Origin: Escherichia phage vB_EcoP-683R2
Length of the DNA: 43,142 bases
Sequence record: ON470594.1
Direction: 5' to 3' (one strand)
This document shows, piece by piece, positions 1 through 43,142 of this stretch. Position 1 is the stretch's first letter. The number at the start of each line of letters is the position of its first letter. The notes below the pieces were generated by a model. It had not been told where the DNA came from. It was given only the letters and a program-made list of their open reading frames with translations, and made no database searches. The position numbers were made by a program, and so were the translations under genes.

Positions 1-388
1 TATTTAAATGTTTCATTGAGCGTAGCGCCGCAATATTGCTTCGCCAGCCAGAAAAGCGAGTCCGTAACGATCGTGCAGCCAATCGCACCTGAACCGATAG
101 CAATCGCAATAATTTCCGGGCTGATGTCGGGATACAGCGGCAGCACAATGATCCATATTTATATTTTCTTCTCCAGATTGGCGATGCCAGTTGGCATGTT
201 TTACCTACTTGCCTACATGGTTACTCGTTGGCGAGAACAGAGGCGGAATTGGGTACAATTGTCCGGGAATTATTGTTATTTTTTATTGTATTGCCGTGTC
301 GGGTGATAGGGCGTCGAGAATATCGTTGGATCTCGCCAGTGACGTCTGTTTCTGCTACAGTGCCCGTTTTACGGCAAACGGCTTGGGT

Positions 389-1384
389 ATGGCTTCATTA
401 AAGGATGTCGCACGCCTGGCGGGAGTGTCGATGATGACAGTCTCCCGGGTGATGCATAATGCAGAATCTGTGCGTCCTGCAACGCGTGATCGCGTATTGC
501 AGGCAATCCAGACCCTGAATTATGTTCCTGATCTTTCCGCCCGTAAGATGCGCGCTCAAGGACGTAAGCCGTCGACTCTCGCCGTGCTGGCGCAGGACAC
601 TGCTACCACTCCTTTCTCTGTTGATATTCTGCTTGCCATTGAGCAAACCGCCAGCGAGTTCGGCTGGAATAGTTTTTTAATCAATATTTTTTCTGAAGAT
701 GACGCTGCCCGCGCGGCACGTCAGCTGCTTGCCCACCGTCCGGATGGCATTATCTATACTACAATGGGGCTGCGACATATCACGCTGCCTGAGTCTCTGT
801 ATGGTGAAAATATTGTATTGGCGAACTGTGTGGCGGATGACCCAGCGTTACCCAGTTATATCCCTGATGATTACACTGCACAATATGAATCAACACAGCA
901 TTTGCTCGCGGCGGGCTATCGTCAACCGTTATGCTTCTGGCTACCGGAAAGTGCGTTGGCAACAGGGTATCGTCGGCAGGGATTTGAGCAGGCCTGGCGT
1001 GATGCTGGACGAGATCTGGCTGAGGTGAAACAATTTCACATGGCAACAGGTGATGATCACTACACCGATCTCGCAAGTTTACTCAATGACCACTTCAAAT
1101 CGGGCAAACCAGATTTTGATGTTCTGATATGTGGTAACGATCGCGCAGCCTTTGTGGCTTATCAGGTTCTTTTGGCGAAGGGGGTACGTATCCCGAAGGA
1201 TGTCGCCGTAATGGGCTTTGATAATCTGGTTGGCGTCGGGCATCTGTTTTTACCGCCGCTGACCACAATTCAGCTTCCACATGACATTATCGGGCGGGAA
1301 GCTGCATTGCATATTATTGAAGGTCGTGAAGGGGGAAGAGTGACGCGGATCCCTTGCCCGCTGTTGATCCGTTGTTCCACCTGA
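389..1384 (+). CDS. cscR: LacI-family transcriptional repressor of the sucrose regulon (CscR)
   Basis: ATG at 389 is in frame with the listed ORF 191..1384, which begins at an upstream TTG. N-terminal HTH (MASLKDVARLAGVSMMTVSRV) and a periplasmic-binding-protein-like C-terminal domain typical of LacI/GalR repressors; 331 aa; sits in the csc cluster. Confidence 0.88.
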   Translation: MASLKDVARLAGVSMMTVSRVMHNAESVRPATRDRVLQAIQTLNYVPDLSARKMRAQGRKPSTLAVLAQDTATTPFSVDILLAIEQTASEFGWNSFLINIFSEDDAARAARQLLAHRPDGIIYTTMGLRHITLPESLYGENIVLANCVADDPALPSYIPDDYTAQYESTQHLLAAGYRQPLCFWLPESALATGYRRQGFEQAWRDAGRDLAEVKQFHMATGDDHYTDLASLLNDHFKSGKPDFDVLICGNDRAAFVAYQVLLAKGVRIPKDVAVMGFDNLVGVGHLFLPPLTTIQLPHDIIGREAALHIIEGREGGRVTRIPCPLLIRCST

Positions 1385-1391
1385 TATTATG

Positions 1392-2825
1392 TTAACCCAG
1401 TTGCCAGAGTGCTCCATGTTGCAGCACAGCCACTCCGTGGGAGGCATAGAGCGACAGTTCCCGTTCTTCTGGCTGCGGATATATTCGGCTACTCATCACC
1501 GCCTCCCCGTCGTTAATAAATACTTCCACGGATGATGTATCGATAAATATCCTTAGGGCGAGCATGTCACCCTGCGGGAGGGGAATACTACGGTAGCCAT
1601 CTAAATTCTCGTGTGGGTAATACCGCCACAAAACAAGTCGCTCAGATTGGTTATCAATATACAGCCGCATTCCAGTGCCGAGCTGTAATCCGTAATGTTC
1701 GGCATCACTGTTCTTCAGCGCCCACTGCAACTGAATCTCAACTGCTTGCGCGTTTTCCTGCAAAACATATTTATTGCTGATTGTGCGGGGAGAGATAGAT
1801 TGATGCTGCTGGCGTAACGACTCAGCTTCGTGTACCGGGCGTTGTAGAAGTTTGCCATTGCTCTCTGATAGCTCGCGCGCCAGCGTCATGCAGCCTGCCC
1901 AGCCTTCACGTTTTGAGGGCATTGGCGATTCCCACATATCCATCCAGCCGATAACAATACGCCGACCATCCTTCGCTACAAAGCTTTGTGGTGCATAAAA
2001 GTCATGCCCGTTATCAAGTTCAGTAAAATGCCCGGATTGTGCAAAAAGTCGTCCTGGCGACCACATTCCGGGTATTACGCCACTTTGAAAGCGATTTCGA
2101 TAACTGTATCCCTCGGCATTCATTCCCTGCGGGGAAAACATCAGATAATGCTGATCGCCAAGGCTGAAAAAGTCCGGACATTCCCACATATAGCTTTCAC
2201 CCGCATCAGCGTGGGCCAGTACGCGATCGAAGGTCCATTCACGCAATGAACTGCCGCGATAAAGCAGGATCTGCCCCGTGTTGCCTGGATCTTTCGCCCC
2301 GACAACCATCCACCATGTGTCGGCTTCACGCCACACTTTAGGATCGCGGAAGTGCATGATGCCTTCTGGTGGAGTGAGGATCACACCCTGTTTCTCGAAA
2401 TGAATACCATCCCGACTGGTAGCCAGACATTGTACTTCGCGAATTGCATCGTCATTACCTGCACCATCGAGCCAGACGTGTCCGGTGTAGATAAGTGAGA
2501 GGACACCATTGTCATCGACAGCACTACCTGAAAAACACCCGTCTTTGTCATTCTCGTCTCCTGGCGCTAGCGCAATAGGCTCATGCTGCCAGTGGATCAT
2601 ATCGTCGCTGGTGGCATGTCCCCAGTGCATTGGCCCCCAGTGTTCGCTCATCGGGTGATGTTGATAAAACGCGTGATAACGATCGTTAAACCAGATCAGG
2701 CCGTTTGGATCGTTCATCCACCCGGCAGGAGGCGCGAGGTGAAAATGGGGATAGAAAGTGTTACCTCGGCGCTCGTGAAGTTTTGCTAGTGCGTTTTGCG
2801 CCGCATGTAATCGAGATTGCGTCAT
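1392..2825 (-). CDS. cscA: Sucrose-6-phosphate hydrolase / invertase (GH32)
   Basis: GH32 motifs WMNDPNG, FRDP and WECPD in the translation. Start chosen at the ATG giving MTQSRLHAAQ (477 aa), 9 nt inside the listed ORF start. Confidence 0.92.
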   Translation of the reverse strand: MTQSRLHAAQNALAKLHERRGNTFYPHFHLAPPAGWMNDPNGLIWFNDRYHAFYQHHPMSEHWGPMHWGHATSDDMIHWQHEPIALAPGDENDKDGCFSGSAVDDNGVLSLIYTGHVWLDGAGNDDAIREVQCLATSRDGIHFEKQGVILTPPEGIMHFRDPKVWREADTWWMVVGAKDPGNTGQILLYRGSSLREWTFDRVLAHADAGESYMWECPDFFSLGDQHYLMFSPQGMNAEGYSYRNRFQSGVIPGMWSPGRLFAQSGHFTELDNGHDFYAPQSFVAKDGRRIVIGWMDMWESPMPSKREGWAGCMTLARELSESNGKLLQRPVHEAESLRQQHQSISPRTISNKYVLQENAQAVEIQLQWALKNSDAEHYGLQLGTGMRLYIDNQSERLVLWRYYPHENLDGYRSIPLPQGDMLALRIFIDTSSVEVFINDGEAVMSSRIYPQPEERELSLYASHGVAVLQHGALWQLG

Positions 2826-2858
2826 TTTTATCATCCTGGTTAAGCAAATTTGGTGAAT

Positions 2859-2871
2859 TGTTAACGTTAAC
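2859..2871. promoter_or_regulatory. Candidate CscR operator palindrome TGTTAACGTTAAC (copy 1) in the cscA-cscK divergent promoter region
   Basis: Exact 13-bp sequence present twice (2859-2871 and 2923-2935) in the 215-bp intergenic region between divergent cscA and cscK; palindromic, as LacI-family operators are. Confidence 0.45.
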
Positions 2872-2922
2872 TTTTATAAAAATAAAGTCCCTTACTTTCA
2901 TAAATGCGATGAATATCACAAA

Positions 2923-2935
2923 TGTTAACGTTAAC
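2923..2935. promoter_or_regulatory. Candidate CscR operator palindrome TGTTAACGTTAAC (copy 2)
   Basis: Second identical copy, 64 bp from the first, upstream of cscK. Confidence 0.45.
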
Positions 2936-3040
2936 TATGACGTTTTGTGATCGAATATGCATGTTTTAGTAAATCCATGACGATTTTGCGAAAAAGAGGT
3001 TTATCACTATGCGTAAGTCAGATGAATTTAAGGGAAAAAA

Positions 3041-3964
3041 ATGTCAGCCAAAGTATGGGTTTTAGGGGATGCGGTCGTAGATCTCTTGCCAGAATCAGAC
3101 GGGCGGCTACTGCCTTGTCCTGGCGGCGCGCCAGCTAACGTTGCGGTGGGAATCGCCAGATTAGGCGGAACAAGTGGGTTTATAGGTCGGGTCGGTGATG
3201 ATCCTTTTGGTGCGTTAATGCAAAGAACGCTGCTAACTGAGGGTGTCGATATCACGTATCTGAAGCAAGATGAATGGCACCGGACATCCACGGTGCTTGT
3301 CGATCTGAACGATCAAGGAGAACGTTCATTTACGTTTATGGTCCGCCCCAGTGCCGATCTTTTTTTAGAGACGACAGACTTGCCCTGCTGGCGACATGCC
3401 GAATGGTTACATCTCTGTTCAATTGCGTTGTCTGCCGAGCCTTCGCGTACCAGCGCATTTACTGCGATGACGGCGATCCGGCATGCCGGAGGTTTTGTCA
3501 GCTTCGATCCCAATATTCGTGAAGATCTATGGCAAGACGAGCATTTGCTCCGCTTGTGTTTGCGGCAGGCGCTACAACTGGCGGATGTCGTCAAGCTCTC
3601 GGAAGAAGAATGGCGACTTATCAGTGGAAAAACACAGAACGATCGGGATATATGCGCCCTGGCAAAAGAGTATGAGATCGCCATGCTGTTGGTGACTAAA
3701 GGTGCAGAAGGGGTGGTGGTCTGTTATCGAGGACAAGTTCACCATTTTGCTGGAATGTCTGTGAATTGTGTCGATAGCACTGGGGCGGGAGATGCGTTCG
3801 TTGCCGGGTTACTCACAGGTCTGTCCTCTACGGGGTTATCTACAGATGAGAGAGAAATGCGACGAATTATCGATCTCGCTCAACGTTGCGGAGCGCTTGC
3901 AGTAACAGCGAAAGGGGCAATGACAGCGCTGCCATGTCGACAAGAACTGGAAAGTGAGAAGTAA
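3041..3964 (+). CDS. cscK: Fructokinase (PfkB / ribokinase family)
   Basis: ATG at 3041 with AAGGGA RBS; PfkB signatures (GDAVVD near the N-terminus, DSTGAGDAF near the C-terminus); 307 aa. Confidence 0.92.
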   Translation: MSAKVWVLGDAVVDLLPESDGRLLPCPGGAPANVAVGIARLGGTSGFIGRVGDDPFGALMQRTLLTEGVDITYLKQDEWHRTSTVLVDLNDQGERSFTFMVRPSADLFLETTDLPCWRHAEWLHLCSIALSAEPSRTSAFTAMTAIRHAGGFVSFDPNIREDLWQDEHLLRLCLRQALQLADVVKLSEEEWRLISGKTQNDRDICALAKEYEIAMLLVTKGAEGVVVCYRGQVHHFAGMSVNCVDSTGAGDAFVAGLLTGLSSTGLSTDEREMRRIIDLAQRCGALAVTAKGAMTALPCRQELESEK

Positions 3965-4025
3965 ACGGCGAGGCCGCTCTTATCTCTAAATAGGACATGA
4001 ATTTTTTAACGACAGGCAGGTAATT

Positions 4026-5273
4026 ATGGCACTGAATATTCCATTCAGAAATGCGTACTATCGTTTTGCATCCAGTTACTCATTTCTCTTTTTTATTTCC
4101 TGGTCGCTGTGGTGGTCGTTATACGCTATTTGGCTGAAAGGACATCTAGGATTAACAGGGACGGAATTAGGTACACTTTATTCGGTCAACCAGTTTACCA
4201 GCATTCTATTTATGATGTTCTACGGCATCGTTCAGGATAAACTCGGTCTGAAGAAACCGCTCATCTGGTGTATGAGTTTCATTCTGGTCTTGACCGGACC
4301 GTTTATGATTTACGTTTATGAACCGTTACTGCAAAGCAATTTTTCTGTAGGTCTAATTCTGGGGGCGCTCTTTTTTGGCCTGGGGTATCTGGCGGGATGC
4401 GGTTTGCTTGACAGCTTCACCGAAAAAATGGCGCGAAATTTTCATTTCGAATATGGAACAGCGCGCGCCTGGGGATCTTTTGGCTATGCTATTGGCGCGT
4501 TCTTTGCCGGTATATTTTTTAGTATCAGTCCCCATATCAACTTCTGGTTGGTCTCGCTATTTGGCGCTGTATTTATGATGATCAACATGCGTTTTAAAGA
4601 TAAGGATCACCAGTGCATAGCGGCGGATGCGGGAGGGGTAAAAAAAGAGGATTTTATCGCAGTTTTCAAGGATCGAAACTTCTGGGTTTTTGTCATATTT
4701 ATTGTGGGGACGTGGTCTTTCTATAACATTTTTGATCAACAACTCTTTCCTGTCTTTTATGCAGGTTTATTCGAATCACACGATGTAGGAACGCGCCTGT
4801 ATGGTTATCTCAACTCATTCCAGGTGGTACTCGAAGCGCTGTGCATGGCGATTATTCCTTTCTTTGTGAATCGGGTAGGGCCAAAAAATGCATTACTTAT
4901 CGGTGTTGTGATTATGGCGTTGCGTATCCTTTCCTGCGCGTTGTTCGTTAACCCCTGGATTATTTCATTAGTGAAGCTGTTACATGCCATTGAGGTTCCA
5001 CTTTGTGTCATATCCGTCTTCAAATACAGCGTGGCAAACTTTGATAAGCGCCTGTCGTCGACGATCTTTCTGATTGGTTTTCAAATTGCCAGTTCGCTTG
5101 GGATTGTGCTGCTTTCAACGCCGACTGGGATACTCTTTGACCACGCAGGCTACCAGACAGTTTTCTTCGCAATTTCGGGTATTGTCTGCCTGATGTTGCT
5201 ATTTGGCATTTTCTTCCTGAGTAAAAAACGCGAGCAAATAGTTATGGAAACGCCTGTACCTTCAGCAATATAG
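4026..5273 (+). CDS. cscB: Sucrose:H+ symporter (MFS oligosaccharide:H+ symporter family)
   Basis: 415-aa polytopic membrane protein with multiple hydrophobic helices; LacY-like family; last gene of the csc cluster. Confidence 0.92.
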   Translation: MALNIPFRNAYYRFASSYSFLFFISWSLWWSLYAIWLKGHLGLTGTELGTLYSVNQFTSILFMMFYGIVQDKLGLKKPLIWCMSFILVLTGPFMIYVYEPLLQSNFSVGLILGALFFGLGYLAGCGLLDSFTEKMARNFHFEYGTARAWGSFGYAIGAFFAGIFFSISPHINFWLVSLFGAVFMMINMRFKDKDHQCIAADAGGVKKEDFIAVFKDRNFWVFVIFIVGTWSFYNIFDQQLFPVFYAGLFESHDVGTRLYGYLNSFQVVLEALCMAIIPFFVNRVGPKNALLIGVVIMALRILSCALFVNPWIISLVKLLHAIEVPLCVISVFKYSVANFDKRLSSTIFLIGFQIASSLGIVLLSTPTGILFDHAGYQTVFFAISGIVCLMLLFGIFFLSKKREQIVMETPVPSAI

Positions 5274-5714
5274 ACGTAAACTTTTTCCGGTTGTTGTCGA
5301 TATCTCCATATCCCTCAACCGGAAAATAATAATACAAAAATGCTTAGCCCAACTAATAATCACCTAATCCAAACGCCTCATTCATGTTCTGGTACAGTCG
5401 CTCAAATGTACTCCGGATACGCGGTTCGCTGATTTCCAGGACATTGTCGTCATTCAGCGACCTGTCCCGAGTATCACGGGCCTGCGAATTCATCAAGGAA
5501 TGCATTGCAGAGTGAAGTATCGAGTCACGCCATATTTCGCTATCAGGATTCTGTATGATGGTTACATCGCCCGGCCCAGGGCTGTTTAGTCATCAGCGCT
5601 TTCTGACAGTGCTGAGATTTCAACCTGTTGCAGTAAAAATGAGTAGATATAGGGCAAGTGTGCTGCCAAACCCATCTTTTACGGGGTGAAGGTAGATATT
5701 GTTAGAAGGGTATC

Positions 5715-5729
5715 TGGTGTCCCCTGCAG
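5715..5729. repeat. attR core: 15-bp copy of the 3' end of tRNA-Arg (argW-type), reverse-complement orientation
   Basis: TGGTGTCCCCTGCAG equals the reverse complement of the 3' terminus (…CTGCAGGGGACACCA) of argW tRNA as I recall it; the sequence diverges from the tRNA immediately after. Marks the chromosome/prophage junction. Confidence 0.55.
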
Positions 5730-5802
5730 ACATCTACTTGAAGCGGCAGGGGATTGATTGGAATGGTGTTTTTTAGATGTGAGAAATATTTTACCCGCTA
5801 TT

Positions 5803-6003
5803 TTACCCATTGGCGCGGCTTAAGAGCTTATTTTTAAATTCACAATGGTCACGATATAACCATCTTGCTCGTCCGTGGATAACTTTGGCTTTAGGAAGGT
5901 CGCCGGACTTAATCCGGTCATAGATGAAGGTTTTACCAAAGCCAGTATCGGCCATGATGAATTTCAAATCAACCAGTGAATCAGGCTGTAGTTCGTGTTG
6001 CAT
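5803..6003 (-). CDS. AlpA-family small DNA-binding protein (putative excisionase / recombination directionality factor)
   Basis: 66 aa, ATG start with GGAG RBS; pattern …TGFGKTFIYDRIKSGDLPKAKVIHGRARWLYRD… resembles AlpA/excisionase winged-helix proteins. In the circularised phage it would lie just upstream of int across attP. Confidence 0.55.
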   Translation of the reverse strand: MQHELQPDSLVDLKFIMADTGFGKTFIYDRIKSGDLPKAKVIHGRARWLYRDHCEFKNKLLSRANG

Positions 6004-6060
6004 GAGTGCTATCTCCGAATAGGGAATCGAACCTGCAAATCAGGCAATAAAAAACCGCCA

Positions 6061-6228
6061 TCAGGCGTCTTGGTGTTCTTTCAGTTCTTCAATTCGAATA
6101 TTGGTTACGTCTGCATGCGCTATCTGCGCCCATATCATCCAGTGGTTATAGCAGTCGTTGATGTCCTCTGCTTCTATAACCCTGTCGAATGGCTCTCCAT
6201 TCCATTCACCAGTGACTCGGAAGTGCAT
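6061..6228 (-). CDS. Hypothetical small early-left protein (55 aa)
   Basis: Unlisted ORF (<60 aa): ATG preceded by GGAG RBS; MHFRVTGEWNGEPFDRVIEAEDINDCYNHWMIWAQIAHADVTNIRIEELKEHQDA; followed by a weak hairpin plus T-run. Confidence 0.4.
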   Translation of the reverse strand: MHFRVTGEWNGEPFDRVIEAEDINDCYNHWMIWAQIAHADVTNIRIEELKEHQDA

Positions 6229-6299
6229 TTATCATCTCCATAAAACAAAACCCGCCGTAGCGAGTTCAGATAAAAGAAATCCCCGCGAGTGCGAGGATG

Positions 6300-6584
6300 T
6301 TATTCATTGCCGATATTCACCTTTATCGCGAACACCTTTACCGGTTTATCACCGAAGTGTGGATGTATGATTGTCTTGATTTCATATCCACCATACGGAA
6401 CATCAATTCTGCGACTGGAATCGTCGCGCTTCGGATATCCCTTTGTGATAATCAGGCGGTCATACTCCCGGAACATAATTCGCTTATTCCAGTAGTCATT
6501 ACACAGGCGATACTCTTCCGTTTTCTCGCCCCGCTTCATCTGGTCGAAGTATTCGCCGTTCACTGCCAGTTGCAGATTAGCCAT
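6300..6584 (-). CDS. ASCH-like (PUA-fold) domain protein, function unknown
   Basis: 94 aa, ATG with GGAGG RBS; its start overlaps the stop of the upstream gene (translational coupling). Family assignment from memory only. Confidence 0.45.
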   Translation of the reverse strand: MANLQLAVNGEYFDQMKRGEKTEEYRLCNDYWNKRIMFREYDRLIITKGYPKRDDSSRRIDVPYGGYEIKTIIHPHFGDKPVKVFAIKVNIGNE

Positions 6585-41984: not shown

Positions 41985-43142
41985 TCACTCCACCTTTTCA
42001 TCAAGCCAGTCCGCCCACCACTGCATCATTTCTCTGCGCTTATCGAGATACTGAGCATGGTTGTAAATACCGCGCACAGATCCGCCGTTGGCATGTGCCA
42101 GCTGCACTTCAATAGCGTCAGCAGGCCATTCGTGCTCGTTCATAATTGTGCTGAATTCATGCCTGAATCCGTGACCGCTTTCCAGACCTTCATAGCCGAT
42201 TTGTTTGATCACAAGCAATACCGCGTTCTCGCAGATTGGCTTCTTCTTATCGTTGCGCCCGGCAAAAACAAACTCTGAGACTGGTTTGGTGATTGAGCTT
42301 AGCGTAGTGAGAAGTTCAACCACCTGGTCTGACATCGGGACCACATGAATTTTGCGTCCCTTCATCACATTGGCGTCGATGGTGATAATCCTGTTTTCAA
42401 AATCGACGTTCTTCCATTGCATGGAACGAAGCTCTTTCGTTCTTAGGGCTGTGTAGCGTAAAACTTTGGTCGCAATGAGCGATACGATACTTCCTGAAAA
42501 TGTTGCAAGTGCTTTGTTGAATGCCGGGATCTGGTCTGCTGGAAGAAACGGGAAGTTCTTCTTGCGGTATCCCTTCATGGCGTCAGCAAGGTCAGGTGCC
42601 GGGTTATATTTAGCCCTGCCGGTGACAATAGCGTAACGGAAAACCTCGCCGCACCTTCTGCGTGCTTTGTTGGCTCGCTCCATTGCACCGCGATCTTCAA
42701 ACCTGCGGATTACTTCCAGCAGTTGCATAGGCTCAATATCCTGAATTTCAAGGCCGCCGATGATAGGTAAAATGTCGTCATCAAACATTTTTGCAAGTTC
42801 AGTTGCATAGCCTACTGACCAGACTTGCTTCTTGTGCTCATACCATTCCTTGTAAATCACACTAAAGGAATTGTTGTTAGACGAAGCCTTTTTCGCTTTT
42901 ACCGGATCGATGCCAACCGAGATGTCTTTCCTCGCAGTCCATGCCTTATCCCTTGCCTCCTGCAAAGTCATAAGCGGATATTTTCCGACAGTCAGGATTT
43001 TCTCCTTACCGTCAATCTTGTAGCGAAGCTGCCATACCTTTTTCCCTGACACAGGGACATAAAGGTACAGGCCATTACCATCGAGTAGGCGGTATGGTTT
43101 TTCTTTCGGCTTTGCTGCTTCAATCTGCTTAACGGTGAGCAT
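41985..43142 (-). CDS. intS: Tyrosine integrase (P4/CP4-57-type, IntS-like, argW-targeting)
   Basis: 385 aa; N-terminal arm-binding region (MLTVKQIEAAKPKEKPYRLLDGNGLYLYV…) and C-terminal catalytic region (…HGFRHEF…RGIYNH…); matches the K-12 CPS-53 integrase IntS as recalled. Start codon is the last 3 bases of the window; the tRNA target would lie just beyond. Confidence 0.9.
   Translation of the reverse strand: MLTVKQIEAAKPKEKPYRLLDGNGLYLYVPVSGKKVWQLRYKIDGKEKILTVGKYPLMTLQEARDKAWTARKDISVGIDPVKAKKASSNNNSFSVIYKEWYEHKKQVWSVGYATELAKMFDDDILPIIGGLEIQDIEPMQLLEVIRRFEDRGAMERANKARRRCGEVFRYAIVTGRAKYNPAPDLADAMKGYRKKNFPFLPADQIPAFNKALATFSGSIVSLIATKVLRYTALRTKELRSMQWKNVDFENRIITIDANVMKGRKIHVVPMSDQVVELLTTLSSITKPVSEFVFAGRNDKKKPICENAVLLVIKQIGYEGLESGHGFRHEFSTIMNEHEWPADAIEVQLAHANGGSVRGIYNHAQYLDKRREMMQWWADWLDEKVE

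Follow-up and report, generated by a model that had tools for sequence, protein, structure and literature searches.

The prophage in the 43,142-nt stretch of DNA analyzed here (the window) is P22-like, belongs to the HK620/Sf6/CUS-3 group, and was inserted in argW through a KplE1-type recombination module; its left end is the attR region. This region holds two blocks of argW sequence, the attR core (block 1) and a T-arm copy upstream of the excisionase gene torI (block 2). Block 2 is real, derived from the tRNA, and under selection, and it is not a crossover site. The joint reading that we favor, and regard as probable though well short of certain, is that this attR of a KplE1-type prophage in argW has retained in block 2 an orphan tRNA-side half-site, an ancient scar kept in the torI leader.

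The prophage end at argW

Positions 1 to 5273 of the window carry cscR-cscA-cscK-cscB, and the prophage, whose genes run on the minus strand, lies beyond them. Between positions 5200 and 6300, identity to the Escherichia coli chromosome NZ_CP032145 was 100% across the 1,101 bases compared. The prophage is P22-like and ∼37.6 kb in size, with P22-type coat, portal, and tailspike genes as well as N, a cI-like repressor gene, cII, cIII, kil, and recT; torI is the final gene of its N-antiterminated leftward early operon. In a comparison with empty argW sites, the boundary between prophage and host could be placed exactly, because the reconstructed empty site (argW followed by base 5714) occurs in 1,472 E. 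coli genomes. In these attB sites argW is fused directly to the segment running from 5714 to 5640 in one 100% identical piece. At the far prophage end, the last codon of the window is the intS ATG, its last base being the A of that start codon. On the matching chromosome, attL, five TorI sites, the intS promoter, and argW all follow just past this point. The attL sites there read GTTCG, GTCCG, GTTCG, GTTCG, and GATCG, plus TTGACA and GGGTAAAA-type arm sites, and argW, ∼160 bp past the window end, reads GTCCTCTTAGTTAAATGGATATAACGAGCCCCTCCTAAGGGCTAATTGCAGGTTCGATTCCTGCAGGGGACACCA. Within the window itself, ARAGORN detected no tRNA gene; in 5274 to 6400, where the two blocks are 15- and 16-nt fragments only, Rfam returned nothing significant and no tRNA match.

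Both blocks aligned with the actual argW gene of the host, and a copy of the core was present at attL. At 5715 to 5729, TGGTGTCCCCTGCAG is the reverse complement of argW nucleotides 61 to 75, the last 15 of the gene; at 6023 to 6038, GGAATCGAACCTGCAA is the reverse complement of nucleotides 46 to 61, which cover the 5′ T-stem and the T-loop, with 2 nt of the variable loop before and 2 nt of the 3′ T-stem after them. The sequence-only reading had taken the first block for an attR core formed by the last 15 nt of an argW-type tRNA and the second for the 16 nt preceding it. It was right about both: the matches are exact and each is unique in the window, that of block 1 corresponds to the published core, and the blocks share one C (a 1-nt overlap in the tRNA) and jointly cover the last 30 nt of argW. 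Also as described in that reading, the blocks are separated by 293 bp (5730 to 6022), in which the only credible gene is a 66-aa open reading frame (5803 to 6003). Because GGTTCGAxTCC is common to many tRNAs and short matches to it are frequent, block 2 might be taken for a chance similarity to this conserved T-loop motif. However, the match is 16/16 and includes the argW-specific TTGCAG, whereas by our own arithmetic an exact 16-mer is expected ∼2e-5 times in the window (2 × 43,000/4^16); even with up to two mismatches, ∼0.04 to 0.05 chance matches are expected. The element moreover occurs at a fixed position in many independent lineages. Chance similarity thus has next to no probability and, for practical purposes, is ruled out.

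The gene between the blocks encodes an excisionase. Its 66-aa product matched PDB entry 1Z4H ("Tor inhibition protein") over all 66 residues (E = 6.6e-43) and is 100% identical to the excisionases of HK620 (HkaC), Sf6 (gp18), and Kapi1, among others. The earlier designation of this gene as AlpA-like stands insofar as the protein is an excisionase, but the protein is no Pfam-level AlpA member: Phage_AlpA (PF05930) scored 12.7 bits, below its gathering cutoff of 21, HTH_17 scored 16.9 bits against a cutoff of 27, and no NCBIfam model matched the 66-aa protein.

RefSeq annotation, 100% chromosome identity, the full-length TorI match, the published core, and the gene layout agree in identifying the recombination module. 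The core, CTGCAGGGGACACCA(T), is found at both prophage ends, the left copy forming the 3′ end of an intact argW. The excisionase gene lies beside attR, oriented like the tRNA, and intS lies beside attL. In KplE1, torI adjoins attR and intS adjoins attL, and five TorI sites (GTTCG/GATCG/GTCCG), together with IntS arm sites, overlap the intS promoter (PMC2951348); the attL sites given above fit this published description. Placement of int and xis at opposite prophage ends, together only in the circle, is the defining feature of the module (PMC2951348, PMC8787464), so the inference from sequence that the two genes would be adjacent only after excision was correct and already in print. TorI- and IntS-dependent excision at the core has been demonstrated experimentally for KplE1 and HK620 substrates.

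Comparison with other elements supports this assignment. KplE1 (CPS-53) of E. coli K-12, organized as attL-intS ... torI-attR at argW, has the same core, TorI protein, and IntS; the layout is alike in that int is next to the tRNA, opposite the end with the excisionase gene, and the arm-type GGGTAAAA and TorI GTTCG motifs are shared. KplE1, however, is a 10-kb remnant, whereas the module here resides in a complete P22-like prophage. The host flank is the csc sucrose island here and dsdC in KplE1, and because of this difference the duplicated core measures 15 nt here versus the 16 nt (CTGCAGGGGACACCAT) published for KplE1 at argW (PMC2951348). The P22-like phages HK620, Sf6, and Kapi1 have attP between xis and int in their free genomes and share 97 to 98% identity with the prophage here from block 2 to the core, an interval in which their records annotate an attP or an integration site; of this end, the CUS-3 record includes only block 2 and what lies upstream of it. 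The module resembles lambda in its heterobivalent tyrosine integrase, arm sites, arm-binding excisionase, and position of xis late in an N-dependent leftward operon, as well as in the imperfect inverted core half-sites around a 7-bp overlap that we predict here. Unlike in lambda, the order is xis-attP-int, and integration therefore separates the two genes; in addition, the excisionase sites lie on the int-proximal arm, and the putative orphan B-type half-site 293 bp from the core has no lambda counterpart. The junction and core, TorI, and the separation of int from xis are thus already known for this phage group, and most of what was read from the letters of the sequence was a correct rediscovery. 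Coordinates are collected in Table 1.

Table 1. Features of the attR region and the far prophage end (window coordinates)
Feature	Position	Strand	Basis
Host DNA downstream of argW, between cscB and prophage	5274-5714		Empty-site genomes; RefSeq annotation agrees
DUF4942 gene fragment, 60 aa	5353-5535	minus	35.6 bits vs cutoff of 25
Block 1, attR core, CTGCAGGGGACACCA in tRNA sense	5715-5729	minus	Exact, unique in window; equals argW 3′ end and attL copy
Predicted right half-site GACACC	5721-5716	minus	Reverse complement GGTGTC, imperfect inverted repeat of GATGTC
Predicted 7-bp overlap TGCAGGG	5728-5722	minus	Inverted repeat GATGTC / GGTGTC around it
Inner P arm	5729-5753	minus	Window sequence; consensus from 25 lineages
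Putative left core-type half-site GATGTC, within degenerate T-loop copy	5734-5729	minus	Inferred
TCCCCTGC	5753-5746	minus	Inverted repeat of GCAGGGGA in core
Two direct GGGTAAAA repeats overlapping torI stop codon, probable IntS arm-type (P) sites	5808-5801, 5796-5789 (5789-5808)	minus	Sequence; TAAA motif
torI, recombination directionality factor (excisionase), 66 aa	5803-6003	minus	PDB 1Z4H match; RefSeq name torI
torI leader	6004-6022	minus	Shine-Dalgarno GGAG at 6016-6013; alignment of 15 lineages
Block 2, TTGCAGGTTCGATTCC in tRNA sense	6023-6038	minus	Exact, unique; equals argW nt 46-61
Conserved box CAGGTTCGATTCC(C)	6035-6022	minus	Lineage alignment
Weak terminator-like hairpin (CGCC-TGAT-GGCG plus T-run), end of upstream 55-aa gene	6049-6067	minus	Sequence
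intS, integrase, far prophage end	41985-43142	minus	RefSeq annotation of matching chromosome; 99% identical to CUS-3 and HK633 integrases

Strand exchange by IntS uses block 1 only

In K-12, block 1 is annotated as the pseudogene pawZ, one of the tRNA-fragment pseudogenes at prophage ends, and it is exactly such a duplicated tRNA 3′ end. Block 2, in contrast to pawZ-type fragments, lies off the junction, embedded in phage DNA and passed on with it. The core is predicted to consist of a C half-site (GATGTC), a 7-bp overlap (TGCAGGG), and a C′ half-site (GACACC). When the 20 nt left of the core were compared across 25 lineages, the consensus was ATTCGATGT(C/A)/TGCAGGGGACACCA, as opposed to GGTTCGATTCC/TGCAGGGGACACCA in the tRNA; over the core boundary, the same 25 lineages give ATTCGATGT(C/A)/TGCAGGGG. 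In Klebsiella phage Chronis, the sequence at this place is still CAGGTTAGATGTA/TGCAGG. A degenerate T-loop copy (GTAGATGTC here, TTCGATGTC in the consensus) thus adjoins the core, and because this stretch is itself a T-loop in the 25 lineages, block 2 must be a second, additional T-arm copy. The left half-site of argW would be GATTCC, at the end of the T-loop, and GATTCC also makes up the last 6 nt of block 2, where it would represent the tRNA-side (B) integrase half-site. The two blocks join seamlessly on paper because the tRNA identity of both ends at the same predicted strand-exchange point. In most lineages the identity of block 2 runs as far as ...GATTCC, whereas in Serratia fonticola and one Pantoea it extends by another 2 nt (...CCTG); these end-points would fall at or just inside the putative overlap.

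Several lines of evidence place recombination at block 1. In the genomes packaged in HK620 and Sf6 virions, block 2 is followed without a break by torI, the core, and int, and for this reason the 293-bp segment, whose fate the sequence-only reading had left to be determined from excised circles, leaves with the phage, with exchange taking place at block 1. Circular 39-kb E. coli "plasmid" records carry the same attP junction (xis-attP-int). In vitro, a 135-bp attR amplified with a left primer at the torI 3′ end, and thus devoid of block 2, is a working substrate for excision; inside this sufficient attR fall the GGGTAAAA repeats, in a stretch that the HK620 record marks as an attP repeat, and IntS arm sites share their TAAA motif. 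Exchange at block 2 would leave two reciprocal junctions. The circle type (terminator followed by contiguous block 2 and block 1, without torI) had no exact match in IMG/VR and was absent from 5,426 complete E. coli genomes, in which all full-coverage matches were two-piece attP forms with torI between the blocks. The deletion type (5′ part of argW, block 2, torI) was likewise not found in the 5,426 E. coli genomes. No recombinant junctions were found at block 2 in these collections, and empty sites are joined at block 1. Together, these data show that IntS-mediated exchange uses block 1 only and that torI leaves with the phage.

The GenBank record of CUS-3 gives a different picture, in that TTGCAGGTTCGATTCC is annotated as both "attL core" and "attR core" and the record stops there. 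Read in this way, block 2 would serve integration and excision as a second att core, and argW and the right end of the prophage do share it as a perfect 16-bp direct repeat. However, S88, a K1 strain that is an exact match to the right end of CUS-3, continues past the point where the record stops directly into torI and then dsdC, and the left end of CUS-3 runs on into a normal core and intS arm. We conclude from these two observations that the prophage ends are misplaced in the CUS-3 record. Given in addition that torI is inside virion genomes, that neither reciprocal product of recombination at block 2 occurs in the collections searched, and that the Kapi1 authors named the block 1 sequence, a 17-bp duplication flanking their prophage, as the putative att site, a second att core is very improbable. 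The presence of block 2 explains why the CUS-3 record misplaces the prophage ends and omits torI.

Conservation of block 2 upstream of torI-family genes

Block 2, which here sits 19 nt before the torI ATG, is also present in K-12 KplE1, HK620, Sf6, and CUS-3. More broadly, a box, (C)AGGTTCGATTCC(C), lies 15 to 18 nt before the start codon of torI-family genes in many lineages, including Erwinia phage Midgardsormr38 (two tandem copies), Salmonella phage g341c, Erwinia phage phiEt88, and prophages of Serratia, Citrobacter, Pantoea, Edwardsiella, Enterobacter, and Phytobacter. The excisionases of these box-bearing modules range from 36 to 100% identity to TorI. The center of the box, GTTCGATT-C, is the most conserved noncoding sequence upstream of torI-family genes in Enterobacterales and holds even at 36 to 47% excisionase identity. 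Across an alignment of 15 lineages, noncoding columns were invariant only at G-T-T-C-A-T-T-C in the box and at a single G in the ribosome-binding site, with the other G and C of the box conserved at 93% and 87%, respectively. CGGAGAT is conserved in the leader in this alignment, and the C at 6022 is a conserved non-tRNA base that follows the box. phiEt88 departs from E. coli in its excisionase-type repeats (GATGTAAC/GCGTTAC) and in its arm repeats (GGGCATAA), yet all 13 of 13 box positions are kept. One and the same terminator-box-leader unit was found joined to TorI-like (85% identical) and g341c-like (36 to 41% identical) genes. In IMG/VR, a pattern of box plus ribosome-binding site occurred only before torI-like genes (71 hits) or within true tRNA genes (49 hits).

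Conservation is not universal. The box is missing in about half of the lineages, among them Chronis, EhrS49, Yersinia, and Morganella, and is therefore dispensable; its loss in Dryocola and Enterobacter R1 resembles a clean deletion of ∼24 nt, and a few single-base variants occur in E. coli prophages. On the upstream side, similarity to lambda (just upstream of xis) ends 2 nt short of block 2 at a mosaic boundary: matches to lambda and lambdoid phages covered query positions 1 to 80 only, with block 2 at positions 83 to 98. The hairpin at 6049 to 6067 was not called by a stricter terminator scan. A BLAST search of phage records with argW for longer fragments yielded nothing on block 2. The matches to argW were mostly prophage records that include the host tRNA, plus Stx2a phages that use the argW 5′ end.

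These patterns bear on whether the blocks are functionless relics of an ancestral attP, in which at least 30 nt of contiguous tRNA identity were split by a one-gene torI cassette. Both blocks abut the same tRNA position and rebuild 30 nt, long tRNA identities are known in the attP of other P22-like phages (e.g., 43 bp in epsilon34), and many lineages do without the box, as such a neutral fossil would predict. However, the T-loop occurs twice, so nothing is missing beside the core; no torI-less contiguous intermediate was detected in IMG/VR or in the 5,426 E. coli genomes; and the box is invariant where excisionases share 36 to 47% identity and adjacent noncoding bases are randomized. We therefore consider a neutral origin by splitting unlikely. 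The first two of these observations also count against the suggestion, made in the sequence-only reading, that a one-gene module was inserted into a longer att repeat. Its other suggestion, a remnant of a tandem or earlier integration, remains acceptable as an ancient origin but not as a neutral remnant, block 2 being too conserved across distant lineages. The conservation of the box reads instead as the signature of purifying selection and not as that of a neutral relic.

Putative function and origin of block 2

Existing annotations of block 2 disagree, with the HK620 and Sf6 records giving a putative pI promoter or boundary sequence and CUS-3 an att core; none describes a T-arm copy. Could selection act on a regulatory element for other factors, such as a CII-dependent pI-type promoter, an excisionase operator, or a Rho or translation signal in the leader? 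A putative "pI / phage integration" promoter and its cII site are annotated here in the HK620 and Sf6 records, the prophage has a CII homologue, and torI ends an N-antiterminated leftward operon. In lambda, CII sites have N6 spacing. The TTGC-N5-TTGC found here deviates from it, its first repeat is polymorphic in E. coli (TTGC/TTAC), and the motif is missing in Midgardsormr38, g341c, phiEt88, and Edwardsiella, all of which keep the box; in addition, a scan for sigma-70-like promoters found none. In the KplE1 work, the torI promoter was described as uncharacterized and excision control as resting on torI expression (PMC2951348), which leaves room for an element of this kind. TorI sites read GTTCG, GATCG, or GTCCG, and since GTTCG occurs within the box, a TorI operator is possible in E. 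coli; it would be hard to square with phiEt88, whose box is identical despite different excisionase sites. For a signal in the RNA, no consensus fold of the leader was conserved across the 15 lineages, a T-arm hairpin being predicted only in Edwardsiella and Pantoea stewartii. Altogether, we judge a regulatory element for factors other than the integrase to be rather unlikely.

The reading that we favor takes block 2 to be an extra, orphan copy of the tRNA-side (B) half-site together with the rest of the 5′ half of the T-arm. An orphan B-type half-site is preferred because the core-binding domain of the integrase is the one trans factor whose DNA specificity is necessarily constant, given that all modules target the same tRNA end. 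The sequences would be in keeping with a B-like half-site, with GATTCC adjoining the predicted overlap in the tRNA and the related GATGTC taking the same position in attP. As a putative function, we prefer a site for the integrase core-binding domain that would couple integrase occupancy to excisionase expression. Alternatively, block 2 may add to the architecture of attP during integration, excision in vitro doing without it. A more far-reaching version, to which we give a rather low probability, is that the box acts as a tRNA-mimicking operator, an orphan attB left half-site for IntS-family integrases upstream of the excisionase gene. A search for integrase relatives that use other tRNAs, in which covariation of the box might be followed, gave no suitable set: identity falls from 61% to 37% with none between.

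With respect to origin, block 2 most likely began as the scar of an ancient integrase-mediated joining. It could have arisen by a nested or tandem integration, through which torI, along with its own half-site, came to lie between the overlap and the B half-site, or else by the capture of tRNA DNA. To the right of block 2, no overlap-like TGCAGGG is present, except for TG in two lineages, and for this reason an integrase-made scar is not directly visible. Nested or tandem insertion by an integrase, with a half-site carried in, could still be the ancient origin. The DNA upstream of the box differs among genomes. In K-12, g341c, and many E. coli prophages it is the 5′ stump of an xis gene of the P22/SfV/ST64T/epsilon34 type (the truncated P22-type remnant ypdJ in K-12), whereas a lambda-like 55-aa gene takes this place in HK620 and in the window. 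Because of this difference, the box marks the left edge of a mobile torI-attP-intS cassette that replaced older xis-int modules. Block 2 would later have been retained by purifying selection as a cis element of the torI leader.

The box is the single most conserved noncoding element of the module, and it is located in the leader of the excisionase gene. If it does act as a tRNA-mimicking operator, integrase bound at the box could set the excisionase level or loop the long P arm during integration, and integrase occupancy would be tied to the excision decision in all argW phages of this type. The box offers a concrete, mutable candidate for the control of torI expression, a modest new lead in an otherwise known module.

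Repeats at the T-arm box and in the att region

In the Erwinia phage Midgardsormr38, the T-arm box (the copy of the tRNA T arm that stands just upstream of torI in the window) is present in tandem duplicate, as CAGGTTCGATTCCCGT followed by CAGGTTCGATTCCCAC. These copies have a 16-nt period and lie upstream of the excisionase gene. A second repeat relates the P arm, the att sequence on the torI side of the core, to the core itself: an 8-bp inverted repeat, TCCCCTGC in the arm and GCAGGGGA in the core, which is kept in HK620, Midgardsormr38, Chronis, g341c, and phiEt88.

Coordinates of features in the window and in the compared sequence stretches (L numbers)
Feature	Stretch	Position	Strand
Inverted repeat, P arm	window	5746-5753	
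Inverted repeat, core	window	5720-5727	
DUF4942 gene fragment	window	5353-5535	-
55-aa gene	window	6061-6228	-
Tandem box, Midgardsormr38	L007	about 2485-2515	
CUS-3 annotated core	L003	1583-1598	
CUS-3 annotated core	L004	1-16	
S88 stretch compared with CUS-3	L006	3100-3500	
Stx2a phage VT2phi_272	L091	1320-1395	
Stx2a phage VT2phi_272	L092	2425-2449	
Stx2a phage Stx2_EC3283	L093/L094		
K-12 ypdJ stump	L099	495-640	
g341c gene 19 N-terminus	L009	2473-2530	

The argW site and annotated prophage ends

Stx2a phages, which have a different integrase, use the opposite (5') end of argW and duplicate 24 to 25 bp there, so both ends of this tRNA gene serve as targets. A 60-aa DUF4942 gene fragment, possibly left over from an older island at the hotspot, lies in the host DNA that separates cscB from the att core. 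In the CUS-3 record (CP000711.1), the attL/attR "core" was placed at the T-arm box repeat, where the record stops, omitting torI. The E. coli S88 chromosome matches the CUS-3 right end exactly and continues directly into torI, with dsdC after it.

attP-form junctions and torI modules in other records

The attP-form junction (torI-core-intS arm) was present in several E. coli "plasmid" records (matches H177 to H180 and H185), two of which are 39,448 bp each (e.g., NZ_CP081786.1); these records may be excised circular phage genomes. Such junctions also occur internally within some chromosomes (e.g., NZ_CP082824.1, H181), where tandem prophages might account for them. Enterobacterial-type torI modules, 85 to 92% identical, were found in two MAGs labelled as Actinomycetes (L104) and Parachlamydiaceae (L118), and may reflect contamination or mis-binning.

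Sequence upstream of the T-arm box

The 55-aa gene upstream of torI matches the small open reading frame found just before xis in lambda. This likeness to lambda and many lambdoid phages ends 2 nt short of the box, a sharp mosaic boundary. K-12 and g341c, like many prophages of E. coli, carry the 5' stump of a P22/SfV/ST64T/epsilon34-type excisionase gene (SLTLDEAC.FLKIS) just upstream of the box, which indicates that an older xis-int module was replaced by the torI-attP-intS cassette.
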